Assembly (NCBI GenBank): GCA_041658725.1
Contig: JBAZZQ010000008.1
Coordinates: 18,070-82,069, forward strand
Length of the DNA: 64,000 nt
Direction: 5' to 3'
Source of the DNA: Phycisphaerae bacterium
GTDB taxonomy: Bacteria > Planctomycetota > Phycisphaerae > JAAYCJ01
Positions 12,752 through 60,221 of the stretch are shown piece by piece (the first letter of the stretch is position 1; each line of letters starts with the position of its first letter). The notes below the pieces were generated by a model. The model searched no databases and was not told the DNA's origin. It worked only from the letters and a program-made list of their open reading frames with translations. The translations under genes and the position numbers were made by a program.

Positions 12752-13894
12752 ATGGCTATGAAGCGGAATTTGACCATTATCACTCTGTCGATTCTGTGGT
12801 TTTTATCATATTTTTCACCGTTGGTCTGGGCGGTTTCCGGCTCCGTTTACTCGGTGGGCAATGATACATACGGGCAATTGGGCATCAATCCCAGATTACC
12901 AGTGTCGGCGTCGATCAACGGCGTGGTGGGAATCGCCGCGAGCTACTACCACAGCCTTGCGGTCAAGGGCGACGGGACCGTATGGGCATGGGGATACAAC
13001 GGCTATGGCGAGTTGGGCGACGGGACTACGGTGGATCGCTCGACGCCGGTGCAGGTTTCGGACCTGACGGGCGTGGTGGGAATCGCAGCGGGCGGCTTCT
13101 ACAGCCTTGCGGTCAAGGGCGACGGCACGGTATGGGCATGGGGATACAACGACTCCGGCCAGTTGGGCGACGGGACTACGACGAATCGTTCGACGCCGGT
13201 GCAGGTTTCGGACCTGACGGGCGTGGTGGGAATTACCGCGGGCGGCTTCCACGGCTTGGCAGTCAAGGGCGACGGCACCGTATGGGCATGGGGACAGAAC
13301 GACTTCGGCCAGTTGGGCGACGAGACTACGACGAATCGTTCGACGCCGGTTCAGGTATCGGGCCTGACGGGCGTAGTGAGAATCGCAGCGGGCTACTACC
13401 ACAGCTTGGCGGTCAAGGGCGACGACACCGTCTGGGCATGGGGATACAATGGCTACGGACAGTTGGGCGACGGTACTACGACGGATCGTTCGACTCCGGC
13501 GCAGGTCTTGGGCCTGACGGGCGTGGTGAGAATCGCCACGGGCGGTTTCCACAGCTTGGCGGTCAAGGGCGACGACACCGTATGGTCATGGGGATACAAC
13601 GGCTACGGTCAGTTGGGCGACGGTACTACGACGGATCATTCGATGCCGGTACAGGTATCGGGTCTGACGGGCGTAGTGGGAATCGCCGCGGGCTACTATC
13701 ACGGTCTAGCCATTAAAATTCTCAGCGGCGACTGCGACGACGACGGCAACGTGACGGCGGCGGACCTATTGATCGTGCTCAACAGCATGGATAAATCGAC
13801 GGGCGAGGTGGATTACGACGGCCGTGCGAACCTCGACGGCGATGGATCAATTAGCTCAACCGATCTTGCCATCGTGTTGGATAATATGGAATAG
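12752..13894 (+). CDS. Secreted RCC1-repeat (beta-propeller) protein with a C-terminal type-I dockerin module
   Basis: Signal peptide. Seven ~50-aa RCC1/ATS1 repeats (VWAWGYNGYGQLGDGTT...). The C-terminal DCDDDGNVTAADLLIVLN...DLDGDGSISSTDLAIVLDNM has two dockerin Ca-binding repeats. Confidence 0.8.
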   Translation: MAMKRNLTIITLSILWFLSYFSPLVWAVSGSVYSVGNDTYGQLGINPRLPVSASINGVVGIAASYYHSLAVKGDGTVWAWGYNGYGELGDGTTVDRSTPVQVSDLTGVVGIAAGGFYSLAVKGDGTVWAWGYNDSGQLGDGTTTNRSTPVQVSDLTGVVGITAGGFHGLAVKGDGTVWAWGQNDFGQLGDETTTNRSTPVQVSGLTGVVRIAAGYYHSLAVKGDDTVWAWGYNGYGQLGDGTTTDRSTPAQVLGLTGVVRIATGGFHSLAVKGDDTVWSWGYNGYGQLGDGTTTDHSMPVQVSGLTGVVGIAAGYYHGLAIKILSGDCDDDGNVTAADLLIVLNSMDKSTGEVDYDGRANLDGDGSISSTDLAIVLDNME

Positions 13895-18695: not shown

Positions 18696-20094
18696 TCGTC
18701 AAACAAAAAAATATTCCATCGGTTTTATTCCGGTGATGGCGAAACTCTACAAGAACCTTCTTCCGGATTTGCAGGTCCAACTCCAACAATTTTCCGGTCA
18801 GATTGGCCGGGCGTTATCGGATCGTCAACTGGAAATAAAAACCGGCCAGGTTGCCGTTGAGGATTCGGAAATTCGACGGCAAATCCGTTCGTTCGAAGAG
18901 GCGCATATCGACCTTCTGGTCATTGGGCACGTCAGTTATTGTCCGAGCGGGGAAATTCTTCCCGGATTGCTGAAAACGAAGTTGCCTGTGCTCCTCTGGC
19001 CGGCTCAGCCCATGCTTGAATTAAGCGGCAAGCATTACGATGGGGAGGCTATGATTCACAATCATGGCGTTCACGGAACGCAGGACCTGGCGAATATTTT
19101 GATGCGAAACAATCGCCCCTGTGGTGTTTTGCATGGCCATTACCGCCAACTGTCCTTCAAAAAAGAATTGCTCTCCTGGGTTCGGGCCGGTCGTGCAGTT
19201 ACTTCCATGAAATCATCCCGGCCGCTGGTTCTTGGAGGTCATTTTGAGCAAATGCTTGATCTTCAATTGGGAAAAACAAATTTTCCAAAAACCTTCGGCA
19301 TCCAATCGCGTGAAATATCGCTGAATGAATTTATCCAATCCGTGAAAACCGTTTTGGAAAAAGACATTAAGGCTGGAATTAATCGCTATCGATCCTGTTT
19401 TGAATTGGACAAACACCTGACCCAGACATTTCTTGAAAAAACGGCCCGCCATGACGTTGCCTTGCGAAATCTCATGCGCCAGCGCAAAAGTTCCGCCGTC
19501 GGAATCAATTTTCAGGCTTTATGCAACGATCCCCGAATCGGAGATGCACTGCACGTAGCGGCCAGTCTGCTTATGTCGGACGGGTTGGGTTACGCGGGGG
19601 AAGGCGATTGGGTTACCGCGATGCTCGTTTGTGGGCTAAGGTCGATCTCGCCAAGAGTGACGTTTACGGAAATTTTTTCCGTGGGTTATCGGGATAACCG
19701 CCTGGTGCTCCGCCACTGGGGAGAAGGAAATTTTGACTTGGCCAGAAAAAAACCTCTTCTTAAAATCAGTCAATTCAAAGATAAGCATCCCGCCGAATTC
19801 GCGGTCATGAATTTTGAATTTAAGCCAGGACTGGCGACTCTGGTCAACCTGAACGTTGGAAAGGACGGACATGCGCAAATCCTTTCCATCGCCGGCAGGA
19901 TTGCCCCCGAATCACTTTCCGCGGTGGATGGCCCGCGAGGGATATTCAAGCCAGACCGGAAGCAAATTTCCGAATTATTGAGCGACTACGCGTATCAGGG
20001 CGGCAGCCATCATCTGGTGATGGTTATGGAGCAGGCTGAGAATGTTTTGGACAAAATTTCAAAATTAACCGGCTGGAGGTATGTAAAGGTATAA
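18688..20094 (+). CDS. L-arabinose isomerase family protein (AraA-like sugar isomerase)
   Basis: GYAGEGDWVTAMLV and GGSHHLVMV match the AraA active-site regions (GFAGEGDWKTAAL; GGAHHTV). A GTG start overlaps the upstream stop (GTGA). Confidence 0.55.
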   Translation: MTDRQTKKYSIGFIPVMAKLYKNLLPDLQVQLQQFSGQIGRALSDRQLEIKTGQVAVEDSEIRRQIRSFEEAHIDLLVIGHVSYCPSGEILPGLLKTKLPVLLWPAQPMLELSGKHYDGEAMIHNHGVHGTQDLANILMRNNRPCGVLHGHYRQLSFKKELLSWVRAGRAVTSMKSSRPLVLGGHFEQMLDLQLGKTNFPKTFGIQSREISLNEFIQSVKTVLEKDIKAGINRYRSCFELDKHLTQTFLEKTARHDVALRNLMRQRKSSAVGINFQALCNDPRIGDALHVAASLLMSDGLGYAGEGDWVTAMLVCGLRSISPRVTFTEIFSVGYRDNRLVLRHWGEGNFDLARKKPLLKISQFKDKHPAEFAVMNFEFKPGLATLVNLNVGKDGHAQILSIAGRIAPESLSAVDGPRGIFKPDRKQISELLSDYAYQGGSHHLVMVMEQAENVLDKISKLTGWRYVKV

Positions 20095-20102
20095 CAAAAT
20101 TG

Positions 20103-20219
20103 AATATCCAATATCCGACACTCAACACCCAACATCCAAGTAAAGAAAACAAGAGACGCCGAATCCTTGCCCTTCTCTTCACTTGAGTGTTGGATGTCGA
20201 GTGTTGAATGTTGGATATT
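20103..20219. repeat. Heptamer-periodic hairpin element (ATATCCA/ACAYYCA units). The left arm is repeated at 60139-60176. It probably acts as a terminator or REP-like element.
   Basis: Left arm 20103-20141 and inverted right arm 20181-20219, each built from five 7-nt units. It lies 9 nt after the isomerase stop. Confidence 0.5.
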
Positions 20220-37124: not shown

Positions 37125-37510
37125 TTTTTGTCCTCTTAAAGCTAAACCTGATTTTACACATAGCTTGACGTTTCCCTCAAAATAACAACCCATACGGCAG
37201 TTGGGAAAGAGAAATTTCCCGCCGCCGCTACGTTTCTTTGTAAAATATCCGCTGGAGCAAGTTAGGACTCCAAAAAAAAGCGATAAAGGCAAGCTGTGTA
37301 TCCCACAAATAAGGATTCGTGCACTTATGAATTTAATGGCTGCTTATTTTTCCGAAGGACATCTGAGGACAACATCTACAATTAGGTTTTGACATGAATT
37401 AAGGCCATTGTTATAATTCCGAACATTGAGACCCAAATAACATGGATTTGGGTTGAGTGTACGGAAATGCTTTGAAAAAAATAACCTAAGTTCGTATTGC
37501 ATAATGTGTT

Positions 37511-37584
37511 GGCCGTGTAGCTCAGATGGTTAGAGCATGGGATTCATAAACCCAAGGTCGTCAGTTCGATTCTGACCGCGGCCA
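37511..37584 (+). tRNA. tRNA-Met (anticodon CAU). G1-C72 is paired, so it is elongator Met or tRNA-Ile2(k2CAU). The 3' CCA is not encoded.
   Basis: The cloverleaf was checked by hand. Acceptor GGCCGTG/CGCGGCC. D-arm GCTC/GAGC. Anticodon loop TTCATAA with U33 and A37. T-arm GTCAG-TTCGATT-CTGAC. Confidence 0.85.
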
Positions 37585-37595
37585 TTTGTAAGTTG

Positions 37596-37850
37596 CTAAT
37601 TGTCAATAGGTTCTGACAGAAACACTTCTGTCGGTTGAGTGGCGGAAGGCTCGCGTAACAAATGTGTAACAGAAATGTTTTCCAGGGATTTCCTGGTTGC
37701 CTCACGCGTTCGCTCCAACAGATCATCACTGACGGCAAGATAGAAGGTTCGAGTGGTCTCAAAACTGGCATGACCTGCCATTCGCATGACGTCCAACTCC
37801 CGCAACCCGTGGGAAAGCCAATTGCTGAGGCCTGCTCGACGTTCACTCAC
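37596..37850 (-). pseudogene. Truncated tyrosine recombinase/phage integrase (C-terminal ~84 aa only), adjacent to the tRNA-Met 3' end.
   Basis: It has box II HGLRE (HxLR) and the catalytic Tyr context GHASFETTRTFYLAVSDD. The N-terminal ~250 aa are absent, and upstream frames contain stops. Confidence 0.6.
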
Positions 37851-38026
37851 GTTACGGCCTGCGCACTCGCCAAGTGACTTTGCATCACCCTCTACCCCGG
37901 AGGCTCCAACGACGGGATTACTCCCGACATTGCTCCGATTGCTACCGGCAGGAGCGAAAGTTGCCGGGTGGGACTTGCACCCACTGAAGTTCTACGCCGT
38001 TCCACGGCGCACTGAAAAATACGGGT

Positions 38027-38410
38027 TAAACTATAAATTATAGAAATTTCTCTTCCAGTACGGCCTTCTGCCTCATTCGTAGCTCAAGCAGGCAACGGTG
38101 GGATTTTTTTGAAGCCGGTTTGTCGAAGGTACTTTTCGGTTCGGTGGTGCATTTTTTGGGCGTTTTTTTTAGTATGATCGTCGTAGTGGGTTAAATGCAA
38201 AAGGCCGTGGGTGATATAAAGGGCCAGTTCGGCGGCGGGGTTGGTTTTGAGTTTTCGGGCTTGCTCGCGGGCAAGTTGGGAGTTGGCGATGATCTGGCCA
38301 ATCAATTCGGACCCTGTATCGCTAAGGTCAAAGGCAAAAACATCGGTCCGGTACCGCCGACGCGCATATTTTTCGGCATAGTCGGCCATTCGTTTGTCGC
38401 CCACAATGGC
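38027..38410. repeat. Copy A of a ~384-bp segment (ybeY 3' two-thirds plus 57 bp downstream) duplicated in inverted orientation at 47407-47788
   Basis: Near-identical nucleotide and protein sequence (IVGDKRMADYAEKYARRRYRTDVFAFDLSDTGSELIGQII...) on the opposite strand 9 kb away. Confidence 0.8.
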
Positions 38411-38536
38411 GATGGAAATTTCGGCGTGGGGGATTTTTTCGCCTTTAAGAATAAGAGCGGCCAGGCGCAAAATTTTCTTTTCACCAAGCGGCAAAAGGCG
38501 GACGAATTTTTTTATGGAAATCCGGTATGGTTTCAT
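38084..38536 (-). CDS. ybeY: rRNA maturation endoribonuclease YbeY
   Basis: H3xH5xH zinc motif ITHGLLHLTHYDDH. Length 150 aa. The ybeY-pgpH-phoH neighbourhood is conserved. Confidence 0.85.
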   Translation of the reverse strand: MKPYRISIKKFVRLLPLGEKKILRLAALILKGEKIPHAEISIAIVGDKRMADYAEKYARRRYRTDVFAFDLSDTGSELIGQIIANSQLAREQARKLKTNPAAELALYITHGLLHLTHYDDHTKKNAQKMHHRTEKYLRQTGFKKIPPLPA

Positions 38537-44070: not shown

Positions 44071-44829
44071 CTATAGCTTAGTGCTGATGGCGCCGAATTT
44101 TCTTTCCCGCTGGACGTAGTCCTGGATGGCACGGTGAAGATGGTCTTCGGAAAAATCGGGCCAGCAGTCTTTTTCCACGTAGAACTCCGTGTAGGCCAAC
44201 TGCCAGAGAAGGAAATTGCTCAATCGCCGCTCCCCGGCGGTGCGGATAATCAAATCCGGATCGGGCATGCCGGCTGTGTAGAGATGATCGCCGATCAACG
44301 TCTCGGTTACTTCTTCGCCCGAAAGTTCCTTTCGAGCGATTTTTTGGGCAATGACCTGCATTGCATCGGTGATTTCGACGCGGGAAGAATAATTTAACGC
44401 CAGGGAAAGGATCAGGCCTTTATTCCCGGCAGTGGCGGCCATGGTCTCGGTCAGCCGCTGCTGAACGGATTCGGGCAATCCGGTCATTCGGCCCAGGTGC
44501 CGAAGTTTGACCTCAAGGGACATCATTTCCGGCAATTCATGTGCCAGATATTCGGCGCAGAGCTGCATGAGAAATTCCACTTCCTCCCGCGGACGTTTCC
44601 AGTTTTCCATGCTAAAGGAATAGAGCGTGAGGTATCCGATTCCGAGTTTGGAGCATTCGGTGACCATCTTGCGCACGACTTTAGCGCCCTGCCGATGGCC
44701 TTCGATGCGAGGCAGATTTTTCCACTGGGCCCATCGGCCGTTACCGTCCATGATCATGGCGATATGTTTCGGCAACTGCTGAGGTTTTAACCCCAAAAGA
44801 CTTTCGATGTCATGTAATATTACGGGCAT
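44071..44829 (-). CDS. uppS: Isoprenyl transferase (undecaprenyl pyrophosphate synthase)
   Basis: IAMIMDGNGRWA, plus the RTAGERRLSNFLLWQ...YTEFY hallmarks of cis-prenyltransferases. Confidence 0.9.
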   Translation of the reverse strand: MPVILHDIESLLGLKPQQLPKHIAMIMDGNGRWAQWKNLPRIEGHRQGAKVVRKMVTECSKLGIGYLTLYSFSMENWKRPREEVEFLMQLCAEYLAHELPEMMSLEVKLRHLGRMTGLPESVQQRLTETMAATAGNKGLILSLALNYSSRVEITDAMQVIAQKIARKELSGEEVTETLIGDHLYTAGMPDPDLIIRTAGERRLSNFLLWQLAYTEFYVEKDCWPDFSEDHLHRAIQDYVQRERKFGAISTKL

Positions 44830-44848
44830 TTTTGCTTTCCATTTTTTG

Positions 44849-45361
44849 AACCACAGAGATCACAGAGATCACAGAGAAAATCATAAGACATCTATACATA
44901 AATCATTCCGGCTTAATCCCCTTTATGTTAGAATAATCCGTTTGATTCCATCGACGAGCATTGGGACGTTAAAGTTAATCAATAGCCCAAGTTGTTTTCC
45001 CGTGGCTTTGAGATAGGAAAGCACTTGAGCGGAATGAATAGGGGCAAGTTCCTTTGTTGCCTTTATTTCAAGGATAAGAGCATCTTCGATTAAAAAATCC
45101 AACCGATGCTCTCCGACACATTCGTTTTTGTAATGGATTTTCACCGGTGCCTGACGGATAAAAGAAATTTCTTTCAATCGAAGTTCCACACATAGCGATT
45201 CTTCGTAAATGGTCTCTAAAAATCCCGGCCCAATTACTCGATGCACCTCAATAGCAGTGCTAATGACAGAATGAGAAAGGCTATTGAGACCATTACTGAA
45301 GGTATTTTGCCTATTATTCATAAACATTTCTTTCTCTGTGTTCTCTGCGATCTCTGTGGTT
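44849..45361. mobile_element. TIR-flanked cassette of ~513 bp carrying a GxxExxY gene. The 30-bp terminal inverted repeats are built from CACAGAGAT tandem units.
   Basis: Left end 44849-44880 aaccacagagatcacagagatcacagagaaaa. The reverse complement of the right end (45331-45361) is aaccacagagatcgcagagaacacagagaaa. Confidence 0.45.
44923..45327 (-). CDS. GxxExxY family protein (PD-(D/E)XK nuclease superfamily)
   Basis: GPGFLETIYEESL contains the G-x-x-E-x-x-Y signature, with a downstream D...E.K (LIEDALILEIKA). Confidence 0.75.
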   Translation of the reverse strand: MFMNNRQNTFSNGLNSLSHSVISTAIEVHRVIGPGFLETIYEESLCVELRLKEISFIRQAPVKIHYKNECVGEHRLDFLIEDALILEIKATKELAPIHSAQVLSYLKATGKQLGLLINFNVPMLVDGIKRIILT

Positions 45362-45374
45362 TAAACCTCTTTTA

Positions 45375-46727
45375 TTATATTTTTATCGCTACCGTTTGGT
45401 CGCGTTCCGGGCCTACGCTGGCCAATTTGATCGGGCAATTCAGCAGTTCCTGAAGCCGGCGCAGATATTTGACCGCGCCGGTCGGTAATTGATTTTGCTC
45501 TTTGGCGGCGGTGATATCCTCGGTCCAGCCCGGAATCTCCTCATAGACAATCTCAACTTTTTCAAGAATATGGCTATCGGTGGGGAAAAAATCGAGGGGT
45601 TTTCCGTCCACTTTATATTGGACCGCGATCTTGATCGGGTCCAGTCCGCTTAATACGTCCAAAAGCATAACCGCCAGGGAATTGATTCCGCCGATCATGA
45701 TGGAATATTTTACAGCCACGGCGTCGAACCAGCCGGTGCGTCTCGGTCGGCCGGTCGTCGTGCCGTATTCCTTGCCCCTAACGCGAATGCCTTCGCCGAT
45801 GTCATTTTTCAATTCAGTGGGGAAAGGACCGGCTCCCACGCGGGTGGTGTAGGCTTTGATGATCCCGAGGTAGCTGTGGACCAGAGCGGCAGGTACGCCC
45901 GTGCCCGCTGAAAGTCCGCAGGGGCCGGAGTTGGAGCTGGTTACGTAAGGATAGGTCCCGTGATCGAGGTCCAAGAGCGCGCCCTGGGCGCCTTCAAACA
46001 TGATCCGCTTGCCCTGGTGAAGATTGCGGTGGAGCAGTTCCGCCGTATCACAGACGTAGGGTTTAAGTTCGTCGGCGTAATTACAAAACTGGTCGTAAAT
46101 TTCCTTCCAGTTCAGTTCGGCCGCGCCATAGAGGGCTTGGAAAATTTTGTTTTTATCGGCAACGATCCGCTGGAGTTTTTCCGCGAAATGCTTTTTATCG
46201 TAAAGCTCGCCCAGCCGGATACCGTAACTGCGATAAGCCTTATCGGCGTAGCAGGGACCGATTCCCCGGCAGGTGGTTCCGAGTGAATTTCCGGCGAGTT
46301 GTTTTTCACTGAGCTGGTCCTGGAGTTTATGGTAAGGGAATACCACGTGAGCCTTGCTGGAGATTTTCAGGTTCTCCGCCACTTTGACGTTACGGCTTTT
46401 TAAGGTTTTAATTTCCTCCAGGACGACCTGCGGATCGAGGACGACCCCGTTGGCGATGACCGCGGTGGCCGTAGGGGAGAGGATGCCCGAAGGGACCAGG
46501 TGCATGGCGAATTTTTCCTTGCCGATGACCACGGAATGACCCGCGTTGGCCCCTCCGCTGTACCGGACAACCAGGTCGAATAATCCCGCCGGTCCGCCCG
46601 GATCGGTCAGGAGGTTGACAATTTTACCCTTGCCCTCGTCGCCCCATTGAAGCCCGACCACACATACATTTCCCGGCAAATCTATTTTCATTACTTGTTG
46701 TCCCTGCGTTTTTAACATAGCGAACAT
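45375..46727 (-). CDS. purA: Adenylosuccinate synthetase
   Basis: P-loop GLQWGDEGKGKIVNLL and TTCRGIGP. The GTP/IMP binding motifs are collinear with PurA. The start may be the internal Met at 46691. Confidence 0.9.
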   Translation of the reverse strand: MFAMLKTQGQQVMKIDLPGNVCVVGLQWGDEGKGKIVNLLTDPGGPAGLFDLVVRYSGGANAGHSVVIGKEKFAMHLVPSGILSPTATAVIANGVVLDPQVVLEEIKTLKSRNVKVAENLKISSKAHVVFPYHKLQDQLSEKQLAGNSLGTTCRGIGPCYADKAYRSYGIRLGELYDKKHFAEKLQRIVADKNKIFQALYGAAELNWKEIYDQFCNYADELKPYVCDTAELLHRNLHQGKRIMFEGAQGALLDLDHGTYPYVTSSNSGPCGLSAGTGVPAALVHSYLGIIKAYTTRVGAGPFPTELKNDIGEGIRVRGKEYGTTTGRPRRTGWFDAVAVKYSIMIGGINSLAVMLLDVLSGLDPIKIAVQYKVDGKPLDFFPTDSHILEKVEIVYEEIPGWTEDITAAKEQNQLPTGAVKYLRRLQELLNCPIKLASVGPERDQTVAIKI

Positions 46728-47151: not shown

Positions 47152-47676
47152 ATGGCGTGCATGGAATGCTACAAACGACAGCTTCGGATCAATGAGCTTG
47201 AGGATGAATTGTCTCAGGCCAAGGCGAAGCTGCGGTATCAGGAACGGACGGCCAAGGAAGGGCCGTTCAAGAGTTCCACGCCCAGCTCAAAGATTCCGAT
47301 CAAGCTCAACACCTTGTCGGAACGTCAGGCGAAAAAAGGCGGGGGCAAACTCGGGCATAAAGGTTATGGCCGCTCCGCCATGTCGCCGGACCAAGCGGAT
47401 CGAGACGAGATCGTGGGCGACAAACGAATGGCCGACTATGCTGAAAAATATGCGCGTCGGCGGTACCGGACCGATGTTTTTGCCTTTGACCTTAGCGATA
47501 CAGGGTCCGAATTGATTGGCCAGATCATCGTCAACTCCCAACTTGCCCGCGAGCAAGCCCGAAAACTCAAAACCAACCCCGCCGCCGAACTGGCCCTTTA
47601 TATCACCCACGGCCTTTTGCATTTAACCCACTACGACAATCATACTAAAAAAAACGCCCAAAAAATGCACCACTGA
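47152..47676 (+). pseudogene. Chimeric pseudogene. An IS66-family transposase N-terminal fragment (~86 aa) is fused to an inverted duplicate of the ybeY C-terminal two-thirds, with a premature stop.
   Basis: The N-terminal part LRYQERTAKEGPFKSSTPSSK...KKGGGKLGHKGYGRS matches the IS66 TnpC motifs (RxQxFGxSSEK; PGGQPGHKGHGR). The remainder is 95% identical to YbeY residues 44-130. A CGA-to-TGA change creates the stop. Confidence 0.55.
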
Positions 47677-47788
47677 ACCGAAAAGTACCTTCGACAAACC
47701 GGCTTCAAAAAAATCCCACCGTTGCCTGCTTGAGCTACGAATGAGGCAGAAGGCCGTACTGGAAGAGAAATTTCTATAATTTATAGTT
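47407..47788. repeat. Copy B (inverted) of the ybeY-3' duplicated segment
   Basis: Reverse complement of 38027-38410 with a few substitutions. Identity ends at TTTAA / cccgt versus agtat. Confidence 0.8.
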
Positions 47789-47910
47789 TAAAGTATTTTT
47801 CTCATCCGTTTATCTGCCATGTTAAAAAACAAACCTCAAAAATTCATATAACCTCTTGCATAATGACTAAAAGGGATGTATACTATAGTTAGCAATAAGG
47901 AGCTGGTTTT

Positions 47911-48772
47911 CATGACATTTACATTCGATGAAATAAAAAAATGCTTAGGGAAGCCTTTTTATGAGACAACAGATTGTATGATCTTTTGTGCCGAATGTTT
48001 GGAAATGATGGCGAAATTAACATGTCCCTTAATTGATTTGACGGTTACAAGCCCTCCTTATAACATCGGCAAAGAATATGAAAAACAAATGCCAATAGAG
48101 GAATATATCGAATGGTGTATGTCTTGGATAATGGAAATACATCGTGTCACAAAACCAAACGGATCATTATGGGTGAATGTGGGATATCTTGAGATTCCCG
48201 GAAAGGCAAAAGCGTTGCCTATTCCTTATTTGCTATGGGACAAAACCCCGTTTTATTTAATTCAGGAGATCGTTTGGAATTATGGGGCGGGCGTGGCAGG
48301 CAAAAAATTTTTTTCGCCTCGAAATGAAAAGTTTTTGTGGTATGTGAAAGATAGCTTTAACTTTACCTATAATCTGGACGAGATCAGAGATAAAAACGTT
48401 AAATATCCCCATCAAAAAAAGAACGGGAAACTGAAATGCAATCCTCTCGGAAAAAACCCGACCGATGTATGGTATATTCCCAAGGTGACCTCGGGAAAAA
48501 ATCGAAGTTCCAGGGAAAGAACGGCCCATCCCGCGCAATTTCCTTTTGCCCTCATCGAGCGAGTTGTCAAAGCTTCAAGTAATAAAAATGATTTAATTCT
48601 GGATCCTTTTTTAGGTTCAGGGACCGCGGCGGTTGTCGCTCTAGCCAACGAAAGAAAATTTATTGGGTTTGAAATTCAAGAACGGTATTGTGAAATAGCG
48701 GCCAAAAGGATTACAAAATATATGGAAAAGGTAAACGAGCCTACCTTATTCAGCTTGGTACAGAACGTCTAA
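47911..48772 (+). CDS. Beta-class DNA methyltransferase of a Type II R-M system. It is probably N4-cytosine (SPPY), possibly N6-adenine.
   Basis: Motif IV DLTVTSPPYN comes before motif I DPFLGSGTAAVVA, which gives the beta-class order. An in-frame upstream Met at 47876 is possible. Confidence 0.8.
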
Positions 48773-49339
48773 TTTGTAATTCTCAACATTACCGCTTAAT
48801 CTTGCCTGCTGTCCCGTAGGTGCTTTCTGTCCCAGCCAATCTTCAGAATCCAGCCATCCAAATTTAATTTTAACTATTTTAGGTTTTGGCCGATTTTCTT
48901 CACATTTTTCAAAGTTCACGGTAAGGTAATAACCAGATTTGCTTTTTCTACCTTTTGCTGTTTCTTGAGCATAACTTCGATTGCCAAAAATACTTTTTGG
49001 ATTAGAGGAGGTTTTGATTTCGATGGAAAATTTATCATCAGGAATAAAAATTAGGTCTTTATCTTTCGCGGAGTTTTCTTTCCTCCATTGTTTCGGATAT
49101 CTTCGCACAAATTCAAGAGGTATGATTTCATGAAGAAAGAATCCCAAAATCTGAGGTTTGGGCAAGATATCCTTTCCAATTAAATACGGCTTGCTACCAA
49201 TTTTGGAATGGAAAATTTCTTCCCACGACCATAATACCACCTCTTTGATTTCTTCGGGAGAAAGAAAATGTTCGGATATCAATCTTTGTGTAATTCCGAA
49301 CCATTTATCGACAGGTTTATTCTGATAAGGAGAAACCAT
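48746..49339 (-). CDS. Putative Type II restriction endonuclease (PD-(D/E)XK)
   Basis: IFIPDDKFSIEIKTS is a candidate PD...ExK catalytic core. The gene is convergent with, and overlaps, the methyltransferase. It sits directly downstream of a C-protein gene. Confidence 0.55.
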   Translation of the reverse strand: MVSPYQNKPVDKWFGITQRLISEHFLSPEEIKEVVLWSWEEIFHSKIGSKPYLIGKDILPKPQILGFFLHEIIPLEFVRRYPKQWRKENSAKDKDLIFIPDDKFSIEIKTSSNPKSIFGNRSYAQETAKGRKSKSGYYLTVNFEKCEENRPKPKIVKIKFGWLDSEDWLGQKAPTGQQARLSGNVENYKLDVLYQAE

Positions 49340-49561
49340 TTAATTATCCAAGAGGTCACAAATTTTCACGTTGAGTGCCTTTGCAATTTTCTCGATGTTT
49401 TCCAAGGTTATATTTTTTTCCGCTCTTTCAATCATCCCGATATAAGTACGGTGAACACCCGCTCTTGCCGCAAACTCCTCTTGAGAGAGATTTAATCTGT
49501 TGCGTTCATTCCGCACCCTTTGTCCAAATTTAAGTAAAATAGCTTTCGCCATAATCCACAC
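49340..49561 (-). CDS. Controller (C) protein of the R-M system, XRE-family HTH
   Basis: LSQEEFAARAGVHRTYIGMIERAEKNITLENIEKIAKALNV closely resembles C.PvuII-type C proteins. Its stop abuts the REase start. Confidence 0.65.
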   Translation of the reverse strand: MWIMAKAILLKFGQRVRNERNRLNLSQEEFAARAGVHRTYIGMIERAEKNITLENIEKIAKALNVKICDLLDN

Positions 49562-49828
49562 TTTCGTAACAGCAAACTATAACTATTTGAAAACTTTAAT
49601 TCTACATACTAAAGGTAGCAAATTGGGGTTGATTTACATTAGCGAAGACAACGTCATTTGGGGTTCATTCCTCGATTCGAGGCTAAATTGTCCACGGTAC
49701 ACTGTTGGCCAAACGGTTACTCAATTTCATTAAAGAACATGAATAAGGAACGATTTATAACTGTTTTAGCCCAAAGATTGCGGATAAAATGCTCTTGCGT
49801 TAAGACGATTCATTTTTATATTAAGGGC

Positions 49829-59600: not shown

Positions 59601-60129
59601 CAAGATGGCCATCGCCACGCTGGAAGATCTGAAAGGAAAAACGGAAATCGTGATTTTCCCTGATCAGTATGGGCAAGTGCAGGACCTGATTCAGCCGGAC
59701 CGATTGGTGTTTGTCCGGGGCAGAGTGGACCGTCGGCGCGAGGTGCCTTCGGTTCGGGCGTCGGAAGTCTACGCGATGGAAAAAGGTCCGCAGCATTTGA
59801 CGAGCGATTGTGAAATTAAACTCACCGCCATTGGCTTGGGCACTGATACGATGGACAAATTTCATGCGATCTGTAAAAAGTATCCGGGTCAAAGCAAGAT
59901 TCTCTTTAACATCCGCACGAGCGAAGGCCATATCGTCGTCGTCCGGGCCGGAGATCACATCCGCATTTCGCCGAGCGGGGAATTTTTATCCGATGTGGAA
60001 ATTCTCCTTGGGCCGGGTCACATACACCTCCTCGCTGGTTCCTTAACCAACGGGGGCAAACCGAGCAATGGGGGCCAGCGATTCTGGCGGGCGAAGAACG
60101 GCCAAACGGCCGACGGCGCGGCGAGGTAA
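56605..60129 (+). CDS. dnaE: DNA polymerase III alpha subunit
   Basis: PHP domain (HLHVHTHYSLLDG), followed by the polymerase core, OB fold and C-terminal regions. Length 1174 aa. GTG start with RBS aggaag. Confidence 0.95.
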   Translation: MSQSFVHLHVHTHYSLLDGACRLEDLFSRCKQLGMNTLAITDHGNMFGAIEFYTKAQAAGIKPIIGYEAYIAPGDRREKEAKGIDEASYHLLLLAQNFTGYKNLLKLATTAYLDGFYYKPRIDKAVLKELNEGLICTSACLAGEISDKIMRQDLAGATMVAEEYAAMFGEKRFFIELMDHGIPEQKFVNEQLVDIADKLGLGLLATNDVHYLNQEDARAHEILMCVNTGKKLTDEKRLTFGSDKFYLRSGQEMAEVFKAYPQALSNTVQLAHHCNLELDFKKRYAPVYHPPEKKKPDDYLRELVYEQAEKLYGAITDDIRKRIDYELQVICSKGFSSYFLIVWDFVNFARQNGIPCGARGSACGTVVGYCLELSNVDPLKYELYFERFMDPERNDMPDIDMDMCQTNRPRVIDYVRRKYGHVAQIVTFNTMAARAAIRDVGRVMDIPLSQVDQIAKKVPFGAKVTLQDALDTEPDLKKLVAENPQIKDLMDVALRLEGLARNSSVHAAGVVIADVALEELVPLCKSGDDILTQYEGTIVEKVGLLKMDFLGLRTLSTLQRTVDLIEQQCGKKIDFENVPLEDPKVFEIFYSGRTKGIFQFESDGMRDLLMRMKPDRLADLIAANALYRPGPMVLIDDYIQRKHGTTWQAPHEIVKEVLKDTHGIMVYQEQVMRLCNQLGNIPMGRSYKLIKAIGKKNEEIISAERDAFLAGCRENGVAKDKAEELFDLIKRFAGYGFNKSHSTRYAMIAYETAYLKAYYPLQFMAALLTFEMGDTDKIVEYIDEARKMGIDVQAPDINASGVDFTVVYEKDKGLIRFGLAAVKGVGSKAVEAIVQARQAGGPFKSLFDFCRRVDLKNLNRGTIESLIKCGAFDSTGAKRKAMVDGLDRALEFASGLQRDANAGQMSFFDNFEKQADVVDEKLGSEEWPESDLLSFEKQTLGFYVTSHPLAQQAALLSSYATADTRKLGELDDGHEIVIGGLIEKVRTVVVKGRNGNGPAKMAIATLEDLKGKTEIVIFPDQYGQVQDLIQPDRLVFVRGRVDRRREVPSVRASEVYAMEKGPQHLTSDCEIKLTAIGLGTDTMDKFHAICKKYPGQSKILFNIRTSEGHIVVVRAGDHIRISPSGEFLSDVEILLGPGHIHLLAGSLTNGGKPSNGGQRFWRAKNGQTADGAAR

Positions 60130-60138
60130 GAGAATTAA

Positions 60139-60176
60139 ATATCCAATATCCGACACTCAACACCCAACATCCAAGA
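60139..60176. repeat. Second copy of the 37-38-nt heptamer-repeat element (identical to 20103-20140), 9 nt after the dnaE stop
   Basis: Exact match AATATCCAATATCCGACACTCAACACCCAACATCCAAG. It is followed by a degenerate octamer-repeat tract (TACTCGTC/TACTAGTC). Confidence 0.5.
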
Positions 60177-60221
60177 AAAAAATGTCGGACTCCGAAACTA
60201 CTCGTCTACTCGACTACTAGT

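Follow-up and report, generated by a model that had tools for sequence, protein, structure and literature searches.

The locus at 47876-49561 of the window, the whole 64,000-nucleotide stretch of Phycisphaerae DNA analyzed here, is very probably an intact and complete ScaI-family Type IIP restriction-modification (R-M) cassette under the direction of a controller protein and of horizontal origin, with activity, specificity and regulation that we infer from the sequence and its relatives. Cassettes of this kind are already well known, and the Phycisphaerae locus adds one member to them.

Three uninterrupted open reading frames (ORFs) make up the cassette: one for a methyltransferase (M, 47876-48772, plus strand, 298 amino acids), one for an endonuclease (R, 48746-49339, minus strand, 197 amino acids) and one for a helix-turn-helix (HTH) controller protein (C, 49340-49561, minus strand, 73 amino acids when read from a GTG). 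An earlier note on this DNA had placed all three genes at these coordinates, where each was found intact; the ORF bounds it gave stand, whereas the likely start codons of M and C lie 36 nt and 9 nt further downstream, respectively. As that note had also described, the 3′ end of M overlaps the convergent endonuclease gene, with 27 bp shared (48746-48772), and the HTH gene precedes the endonuclease gene on the same strand, such that TAA, the stop codon of C (49342-49340), adjoins the R start codon ATG (49339), both on the minus strand. This layout is widespread: among 80 related genome loci, collected using R as the query and spanning many phyla, nearly all retain the order C, R and convergent M. 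A convergent M is located no more than 2.5 kb from R in 78 of the 80 loci where R was found, overlapping the 3′ end of R in most of them, and C immediately precedes R on the same strand in about 63 of the 80.

The endonuclease (48746-49339, minus strand, 197 amino acids) belongs to a named family of Type II restriction enzymes, RE_ScaI (PF09569), whose Pfam profile it matches with an E-value of 1.6e-69 and a score of 233.9 bits (cut-off 25) over profile positions 1-190 of 192. The PADLOC model REase_II gives a match of 3.1e-69, and an NCBI entry 100% identical to R already bears the name “ScaI family restriction endonuclease”, with 1306 homologues. Residues D95, E107 and K109 do not vary across 20 diverse homologues and form a D95...E107-x-K109 pattern that marks the putative catalytic residues (49055-49057, 49019-49021 and 49013-49015, respectively, minus strand). 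Family membership and this invariant pattern are in keeping with the earlier proposal of a PD-(D/E)XK-like endonuclease, and R is predicted to be a small nuclease of that class. In an AlphaFold2 model of R (pLDDT 79), the three residues are placed on strands 96-98 and 106-111, and the best fold matches in the Protein Data Bank (PDB) are the blunt-cutting Type II enzymes EcoRV, NaeI, 3ndh and PvuII, all of these matches being weak (E of at least 0.018, TM about 0.4); a search of R against PDB sequences produced no match, even at an E-value of 1. About 65 columns of the R alignment are invariant across phyla, and the window R possesses all of these residues because it was itself included when the invariant columns were counted.

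Because R belongs to the RE_ScaI family, its specificity, which the earlier note had called unknown, becomes predictable: judging by sequence, R would most likely target unmodified AGTACT and cut it to leave blunt ends. M matches N6_N4_Mtase (PF01555) at 7.6e-63 in a Pfam profile search and Type II methyltransferase models at 5.5e-66 in a defense-system profile search. In the 298-amino-acid reading, SPPY (motif IV) occupies residues 59-62 (48050-48061) and DPFLGSG (motif I) residues 243-249 (48602-48622); motif IV therefore lies ahead of motif I, as in beta-class enzymes, and profile match and motif positions together uphold the previous identification of a beta-class SPPY methyltransferase. 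The M gene is likely to start at ATG 47912 (47912-48772, plus strand, 286 amino acids), the codon selected by an independent gene call and preceded by AAGGAG at 47897-47902; the alternative ATG 47876, which yields the 298-amino-acid protein, falls within the candidate M promoter described below. Of 79 M homologues in the family, 76 have the SPPY motif, and M.ScaI (UniProt O52692) is listed among the cytosine-N4 methyltransferases (PMC8557920). The product of M would most likely be N4-methylcytosine in AGTACT.

A different, improbable reading accepts that the cassette is a working R-M system with the ScaI fold and under C control but holds that its site is not AGTACT, or that M makes N6-methyladenine. 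Adenine methylation comes into consideration because the best match of M among solved structures is the N6-adenine enzyme M.RsrI (1.5e-33 in a PDB sequence search, compared with 7e-18 for M.PvuII); it is opposed by the occurrence of SPPY, rather than DPPY, in those 76 of 79 proteins and by the m4C listing of the name-giving M.ScaI. As to another site, R is just 49-72% identical to the relatives found, and the avoidance of AGTACT, when pooled over the related loci (43 sites observed vs 56-83 expected, ratio 0.52-0.78), takes ranks between 1st and 39th among 64 palindromes as the background model is varied. Against this, the R family is unusually uniform, with its approximately 65 invariant columns across phyla, and M aligns with a homologue from an Escherichia coli plasmid at 64% identity without gaps, the variable region included; the uniform R columns and the gapless M alignment therefore argue for one specificity throughout the family. 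AGTACT is also absent from the window (0 sites vs 2.1-2.6 expected), which is, though, too small for avoidance to be weighed. We retain AGTACT and N4-methylcytosine as the preferred prediction.

The third gene encodes an XRE HTH protein that was earlier described as controller-like and does resemble controllers of solved structure. C matches the Pfam domain HTH_3 at 2.8e-18 and the PADLOC control-protein model at 2.2e-24, and a PDB sequence search retrieves C.AhdI (1.8e-12), C.BclI (2.8e-12) and C.Esp1396I (3.4e-6). The likely start is ATG 49552, as in the gene call (49340-49552, minus strand, 70 amino acids); the alternative GTG 49561 gives 73 amino acids. We considered and rejected an antitoxin or phage repressor, as NCBIfam matches to such families were all far below the cut-offs, and a controller accounts alike for the matches to control-protein models, the location ahead of R and the C-boxes. 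A literature search for a ScaI controller protein or a ScaI-family C-box yielded nothing relevant, and ScaI is absent from the main text of a systematic C-box survey (PMC2632904), the part of that source considered here.

A search for a C-box in 49562-49640, suggested in the earlier note, led to a double C-box operator at 49589-49619 (minus strand), detected in aligned upstream regions and conserved in relatives, which reads GCTACCTTTAGT-ATGT-AGAATTAAAGTTTTC and consists of a left box (OL), a central TGT and a right box (OR) at the C/R promoter. The pattern CTANNNNTAGTNTGTAGA, with at most 2 mismatches allowed, precedes C in 56 of 63 relatives, where its spacing from that gene is constant (median 32 nt), and has 64 matches in the 1.15 million positions of all loci; the single match in the 64-kb window, at 49601-49618, has 0 mismatches. 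The common form of the operator, ATGCTACTTATAGTCTGTAGACTCATAGTCATCAT, shares its arrangement with the published consensus GACT(N3)AGTC(N4)GACT(N3)AGTC (PMC3488213). Operator type co-varies with the C-protein subgroup: C proteins that match the window C at E-values of 1e-24 to 1e-32 are paired with GCTAACTATAGTATGTAGA, and more distant ones (1e-13 to 1e-18) with GCTACTTATAGTCTGTAGA. The window OL is ACCTTTAGT, compared with AACTATAGT in the subgroup consensus, and its OR ends in GTTTTC, compared with GTTAGC in the subgroup.

A single C-box (OM), GCTAACTATAGTAT, is located at 47880-47893 (minus strand), overlapping the -10 element of the candidate M promoter and the region where transcription would start. 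Its 12-mer GCTAACTATAGT recurs, letter for letter, as the left C/R operator box of the closest relatives, and an OL-like box is found at the M start, in the same place and orientation, in 24 of the 80 related loci, often in the form TTGACA-N17-TACTATAAGTAGCAT-ATG. By analogy, OM is predicted to be the site where C represses M. The earlier note had missed this second C operator.

The candidate M promoter (47856-47884, plus strand) comprises a -35 element TTGCAT (47856-47861), a 17-nt spacer and a -10 element TATACT (47879-47884). Members of the close subgroup have TTGCA or TTGTA followed by TATACT in this region, and those of the common group have TTGACA-N17-TACTAT directly ahead of the M start. 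For C/R, reading of the sequence and analogy with relatives point to a putative -10 element TATAGT (49576-49581, minus strand) and a weak putative -35 element TAGAAT (49599-49604, minus strand) inside the right C-box. Predicted transcription starts fall at about 49569 for C/R and about 47891 for M. Because a generic consensus promoter scan, which found fewer sites here than in shuffled sequences, flagged neither promoter, both are assigned solely on comparative conservation.

The predicted circuit matches, by analogy, the paradigm of Esp1396I, AhdI and PvuII; convergent C/R and M genes with the three operators OL, OR and OM have been described (PMC3488213). Upon entry into a new cell, M would be transcribed from its own constitutive promoter, and the C/R operon would be initiated from a weak one. 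Accumulating C would bind the distal box OL of the 49589-49619 operator and activate C and R in a delayed positive feedback; at a higher level, C would also fill the proximal box OR and switch the C/R operon off. C bound to the single box at 47880-47893, over the -10 element of M, would turn M down.

Composition, the phylogeny of the relatives and flanking fragments agree in supporting horizontal acquisition of the cassette, as the earlier note had proposed from base composition and flanking insertion sequence (IS) and duplication debris. GC content is 0.35-0.40 over approximately 47750-49750, compared with about 0.52 (roughly 0.50-0.55) on both sides, which confirms the low-GC island. The nearest relatives come from metagenome-assembled genomes (MAGs) of Patescibacteria, not Planctomycetota. 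In the left flank, the 5′ part of a transposase gene of the IS66 family occupies 47152-47409 (plus strand) and is joined in frame to a piece of ybeY immediately after it. The peptide encoded by this IS fragment has 41 homologues at E<=1e-3, among them proteins with PF13005 (zf-IS66) and proteins annotated as “transposase” or “IS66 family transposase, partial [Phycisphaerae bacterium]”; the link to IS66 came from this large protein search alone, with Pfam, NCBIfam and plasmid tblastn all negative for the fragment. The adjacent segment, 47410-47804 (plus strand), is a 395-nt inverted copy, 97% identical, of 38013-38407, recognized from the inverted repeat, its alignment and a Pfam match, and comprises the 3′ part of ybeY with about 130 nt of downstream DNA. 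The intact ybeY gene is at 38084-38536 (minus strand); the YbeY match in the duplicate covers only the C-terminal part, and the duplicate carries an internal stop and ends about 50 nt ahead of the M promoter. A group II intron fragment is also present in the neighborhood of the cassette. A search around the cassette for a target-site duplication or terminal inverted repeats found none, and exact-protein look-ups for an empty site with the flanking PurA and dockerin returned nothing, or one and the same 6.4-kb Logan contig.

A still less probable alternative is that the cassette is a decaying remnant, with open reading frames but silent restriction, for instance due to a diverged C/R operator or promoter, and with the locus acting only as a methylase or not at all; its OL and OR do depart from the subgroup consensus at several positions, neither promoter meets the generic sigma-70 consensus, and the neighborhood with its IS66 fragment, interrupted ybeY duplicate and group II intron fragment is rearranged, but we judge this highly improbable given that all three ORFs are full length, R retains every family-invariant residue, OM preserves its 12-mer perfectly, the double-box core pattern is matched with 0 mismatches, and weakness in the absence of the activator is to be expected of a C-dependent promoter (PMC3488213).

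We favor, accordingly, an intact system, with modest consequences. The locus is a clean instance of R-M cassette transfer across distant phyla, and a probable specificity (AGTACT, m4C) along with a regulatory map for a Phycisphaerae R-M system could aid methylome interpretation and the design of transformation experiments; outside annotation, its significance is small. Studies of R-M regulation could make modest use of a whole restriction endonuclease family with an Esp1396I-like arrangement and many natural variants of operator and C protein. Rather unlikely, in our estimation, is the further-reaching proposal that a hitherto undescribed three-operator switch of the Esp1396I type operates family-wide in ScaI-family cassettes of many bacterial and archaeal phyla, with the -10 element of M embedded in a C operator, M often leaderless and, in the subgroup of the window, a third box over the C/R -10 element, and that, as a separate matter, the 395-nt inverted ybeY duplication enclosing a 9-kb housekeeping block may have arisen when the cassette inserted.

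The prototype for comparison is the ScaI system of Streptomyces caespitosus, in which R.ScaI cleaves AGT^ACT and which was cloned by Xu et al. in 1998 (cited in PMC2890505). The window cassette is similarly compact, its R is a full-length match to the Pfam family named after R.ScaI, and its M is an SPPY amino-methyltransferase, comparable to M.ScaI (O52692) with its m4C entry (PMC8557920); unlike the prototype, it resides in a Phycisphaerae MAG, that is, in another phylum, and the likeness between the two runs via the family profile. With Esp1396I (PMC3488213; PDB 3CLC), the window shares convergent C/R and M transcription units, a 35-bp OL and OR double operator with a central TGT upstream of C, a single OM overlapping the M promoter and a homologous controller (C.Esp1396I, 3.4e-6). 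Esp1396I has, in contrast, an endonuclease and a methylase from unrelated families and an unrelated recognition site, the boxes differ (AC-CTTTA-GT and AAC-TATA-GTT in the window vs GACT-TATA-GTC), and regulation in the window is a prediction. C.AhdI and C.BclI (PDB 1Y7Y and 2B5A) are the best solved relatives of the window C, over about 60 residues, and have the same size and HTH layout, but the R-M systems they serve differ in enzymes and specificity.

Small E. coli plasmids (NZ_CP104531.1 and NZ_CP063352.1) carry the same gene order, an HTH gene followed by a ScaI-family R and a convergent M. These cassettes differ from the window in being plasmid-borne. A small extra ORF lies ahead of the plasmid M, and in about 300 nt upstream of this gene, read by eye, no OL-like single box was seen. 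The plasmid cassette and the window are 49% identical in R, 64% in M (gapless) and 44% in C, and the plasmid, like the window, has a double C-box, ACTCATAGTCTGTAGACCCAAAGTC, upstream of C.

A compact Type II restriction-modification (R-M) system with a controller protein had been proposed at 47876-49561 of the window, and this reading stands: the methyltransferase (M), the endonuclease (R) and the small XRE HTH controller (C) are intact, belong to named families and are accompanied by a double C-box. A mechanical list of open reading frames (ORFs) contains all three, uninterrupted, where the earlier note had placed them: on the plus strand M (298 aa, 47876..48772), and on the minus strand R (197 aa, 48746..49339) and C (73 aa from a GTG, 49340..49561). 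M and R are indeed convergent with overlapping 3' ends, sharing 27 bp, and the C stop codon, TAA (49342-49340), directly abuts the R ATG. The cassette belongs to a well-known kind of system, and NCBI already annotates it by family.

The description of R as an endonuclease is borne out by its membership in a named Type II family. R matches Pfam RE_ScaI (PF09569) over positions 1-190 of the 192-position profile (233.9 bits, E 1.6e-69) and, among the defence-system profile models of PADLOC, the Type II REase model (3.1e-69). A large protein collection holds an identical protein, named by NCBI 'MAG: ScaI family restriction endonuclease [Phycisphaerae bacterium]', along with more than 1300 further homologues. 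When 20 diverse homologues are aligned, about 65 columns are invariant, among them D95 and E107-x-K109, which appear to form the standard PD-(D/E)XK signature and are predicted to lie on adjoining strands in an AlphaFold2 model (mean pLDDT 79, pTM 0.80). The best PDB fold matches of this model, EcoRV, NaeI, 3ndh and PvuII, all blunt-cutting Type II enzymes, are weak in score (E of at least 0.018, TM near 0.4), consistent with a PD-(D/E)XK nuclease and not decisive.

M had been assigned to the beta-class methyltransferases with an SPPY motif, and the profile searches agree: the 298-aa protein matches Pfam N6_N4_Mtase (7.6e-63) and the PADLOC Type II methyltransferase models (5.5e-66), and its solved relatives are beta-class amino-methyltransferases, namely M.RsrI (1.5e-33), M.MboIIA, M.PvuII and CcrM. 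SPPY occupies residues 59-62 and DPFLGSG residues 243-249; therefore, motif IV precedes motif I, as claimed. We take the M start to be ATG 47912, because ATG 47876 falls within the inferred M promoter, AAGGAG (47897-47902) precedes ATG 47912, and an independent gene call begins there (286 aa). For C, the likely start is ATG 49552, giving 70 aa, so that both start codons move slightly relative to the earlier note. The C-type controller assignment is sustained by matches to HTH_3 (2.8e-18), to the PADLOC 'control protein' model (2.2e-24) and, as best solved structures, to C.AhdI (1.8e-12), C.BclI (2.8e-12) and C.Esp1396I (3.4e-6). An identity as an antitoxin or phage repressor was rejected, NCBIfam matches to such families all falling far under the cut-offs.

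Horizontal acquisition, also part of the original reading, is favored by base composition, by the relationships of R and by a scarred left flank. GC content is 0.35-0.40 over about 47750-49750 vs 0.50-0.55 on either side. The closest R proteins (65-72% identity) come from Patescibacteria, Dehalococcoidia and other MAGs, and homologues from Planctomycetota, including Phycisphaerae, are just 49-59% identical, so that R appears phylogenetically incongruent with its host. The flanking IS and duplication debris could be specified. An IS66-family transposase is represented at 47152-47409 (+) by an N-terminal fragment, whose homologues are annotated as IS66 family transposases or carry PF13005; a few do the latter, and most are truncated at contig ends. 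The peptide itself had no match in Pfam, in NCBIfam or among plasmids. A chimeric 174-aa ORF joins this fragment in frame to a partial ybeY duplicate at 47410-47804, an inverted copy of 38013-38407 (395 nt, 97% identity) that takes in the 3' 270 nt of ybeY and the DNA downstream of it and has a new stop codon. Between the two repeat copies lies a 9-kb housekeeping block (ybeY 5' end, HD-domain membrane protein, phoH, cdsA, uppS, purA), which recombination could invert. Around the cassette, neither a target-site duplication nor terminal repeats were found, and exact-protein look-ups with the flanking PurA and dockerin proteins revealed no empty site.

Several other features were observed in the window. 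A group II intron is represented by a D1-D4 fragment (Rfam RF02003, 100 bits; 37847-37986, minus strand) some 27 nt away from where the first ybeY repeat copy ends; the intron looks truncated because no reverse-transcriptase ORF is evident, and it adjoins a tRNA-Met gene (37510-37585, plus strand). A second low-GC patch (0.40-0.43) at 44750-45500, containing a GxxExxY/PDDEXK_3 family gene (44923..45327, minus strand), may be another small insertion. A tandem array at 12920-13819 (150-nt period, at least 5 overlapping 300-nt copies, 62-89% identity) is probably a repeat-domain coding region, and a dispersed 56-nt direct repeat (91% identity; TAACAAAATTGAATATCCAATATCCGACACTCAACACCCAACATCCAAG...) occurs 40 kb apart at 20092-20147 and 60127-60182.

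The earlier note called the specificity unknown; membership in the RE_ScaI family makes it predictable as ScaI-type. ScaI cuts AGT^ACT. SPPY is retained in 76 of 79 M proteins of ScaI-family cassettes, which, with the high uniformity of R and M across phyla, would fit a single specificity with m4C modification. The family's namesake is cited in PMC2890505, and PMC8557920 catalogues M.ScaI (O52692) as a cytosine-N4 methyltransferase. AGTACT is absent from the window (2.1-2.6 sites expected) and occurs 43 times in the pooled related loci (56-83 expected); its avoidance rank among 64 palindromes varies with the model, from 1st (order-4) through 7th to 15th (per-locus order-3 and order-2) to 39th (first-order), compatible with AGTACT specificity and not decisive. 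Several other 6-bp palindromes are far rarer in the window than an order-4 Markov model predicts: CAGCTG (0 vs 6.7 expected), CCCGGG (1 vs 17.2), CATATG (1 vs 8.8), GAGCTC (1 vs 7.7) and CGCGCG (1 vs 8.3). Such depletion points to further R-M systems, present or past, that target those sites in the host.

A scan with the R alignment, covering a single genome for each species, yielded 80 loci, from Patescibacteria, Chloroflexota, Planctomycetota, Acidobacteriota, Cyanobacteria, Proteobacteria, Bacteroidota, Firmicutes and even archaea, whose six-frame ORFs were searched with the window's M, R and C proteins. Of these, 78 have a convergent homologue of M no more than 2.5 kb from R, overlapping the R 3' end in most, and in about 63 a C homologue immediately precedes R, in the same orientation; therefore, C->R<-M is the standard cassette of the ScaI family. 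What the analysis shows is the parts list and its conservation. The complete cassette is also present on two small plasmids of E. coli, 4.5 and 7.75 kb in size (at 1029-2674 in NZ_CP104531.1, locus L082), where a canonical double C-box precedes the HTH gene; identity to the window's proteins is 49% for R, 64% (gapless) for M and 44% for C.

Alignment of the 110-nt stretches that precede the C starts revealed a strongly conserved element, ATGCTACTTATAGTCTGTAGACTCATAGTCATCAT in most loci, that has the classical double C-box layout, GACT(N3)AGTC(N4)GACT(N3)AGTC with central TGT, described for AhdI, PvuII and Esp1396I (PMC3488213). A variant, GCTAACTATAGTATGTAGAACCAAAGTTAGCA, occurs in loci with C proteins nearest the window's (E 1e-24 to 1e-32), and the common form goes with more distant ones (1e-13 to 1e-18), co-variation as expected of a real protein-operator pair. 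The window's double C-box is GCTACCTTTAGTATGTAGAATTAAAGTTTTC (49619-49589, minus strand). The pattern derived from the relatives, CTANNNNTAGTNTGTAGA with up to 2 mismatches, precedes C in 56 of 63 loci (median 32 nt to the start codon), with just 64 matches in 1.15 million positions across all loci. It matches the 64-kb window once, at 49601-49618 with 0 mismatches, thus confirming the C-box predicted within 49562-49640. The window's subgroup (L001-L007, L017) has a third box-like element, GTATACTAYAGTTAKCAA, downstream of the double C-box at the C/R promoter, nearly identical to an element at the M promoter -10; window 49570-49583 is a degenerate version, AGTTATAGTTTGCT.

In many relatives, the sequence leading directly into M reads TTGACA, 17 nt, TACTATAAGTAGCAT and ATG, apparently a good promoter whose -10 lies within a left C-box in reverse complement. 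The putative counterpart in the window is TTGCAT (47856-47861), a 17-nt spacer and TATACT (47879-47884), with a single box, OM, at 47880-47893 (minus strand; GCTAACTATAGTAT), whose 12-mer GCTAACTATAGT exactly matches the left box in the C/R operators of the closest relatives. A box like the left one occurs at the same position and orientation in 24 of the 80 loci. OM is a predicted second C operator, absent from the earlier note. The candidate C/R promoter has a -10 of TATAGT (49576-49581) and a poor -35, TAGAAT, inside the right box; a generic promoter scan flagged neither this promoter nor that of M.

Following the published paradigm, from which binding, activation, repression and promoters are inferred, M would be driven by its own promoter upon entry into a naive cell, protecting the chromosome while the C/R operon is nearly silent. 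Rising C would bind the left box, OL, activating C and R; higher levels would fill the right box, OR, repressing both, and C would also bind OM and lower M.

The analysis refines the earlier note in the predicted ScaI-type specificity, the shifted M and C starts and the predicted second operator at the M promoter. Only the Esp1396I-like arrangement of operators across the family is mildly new; the searchable literature yielded no description of it for the ScaI family. In Esp1396I, the units are convergent and C binds a single operator, OM, at the M promoter, repressing M (PMC3488213); the window matches this arrangement in its convergent units and single box at the M promoter, and repression is predicted here.
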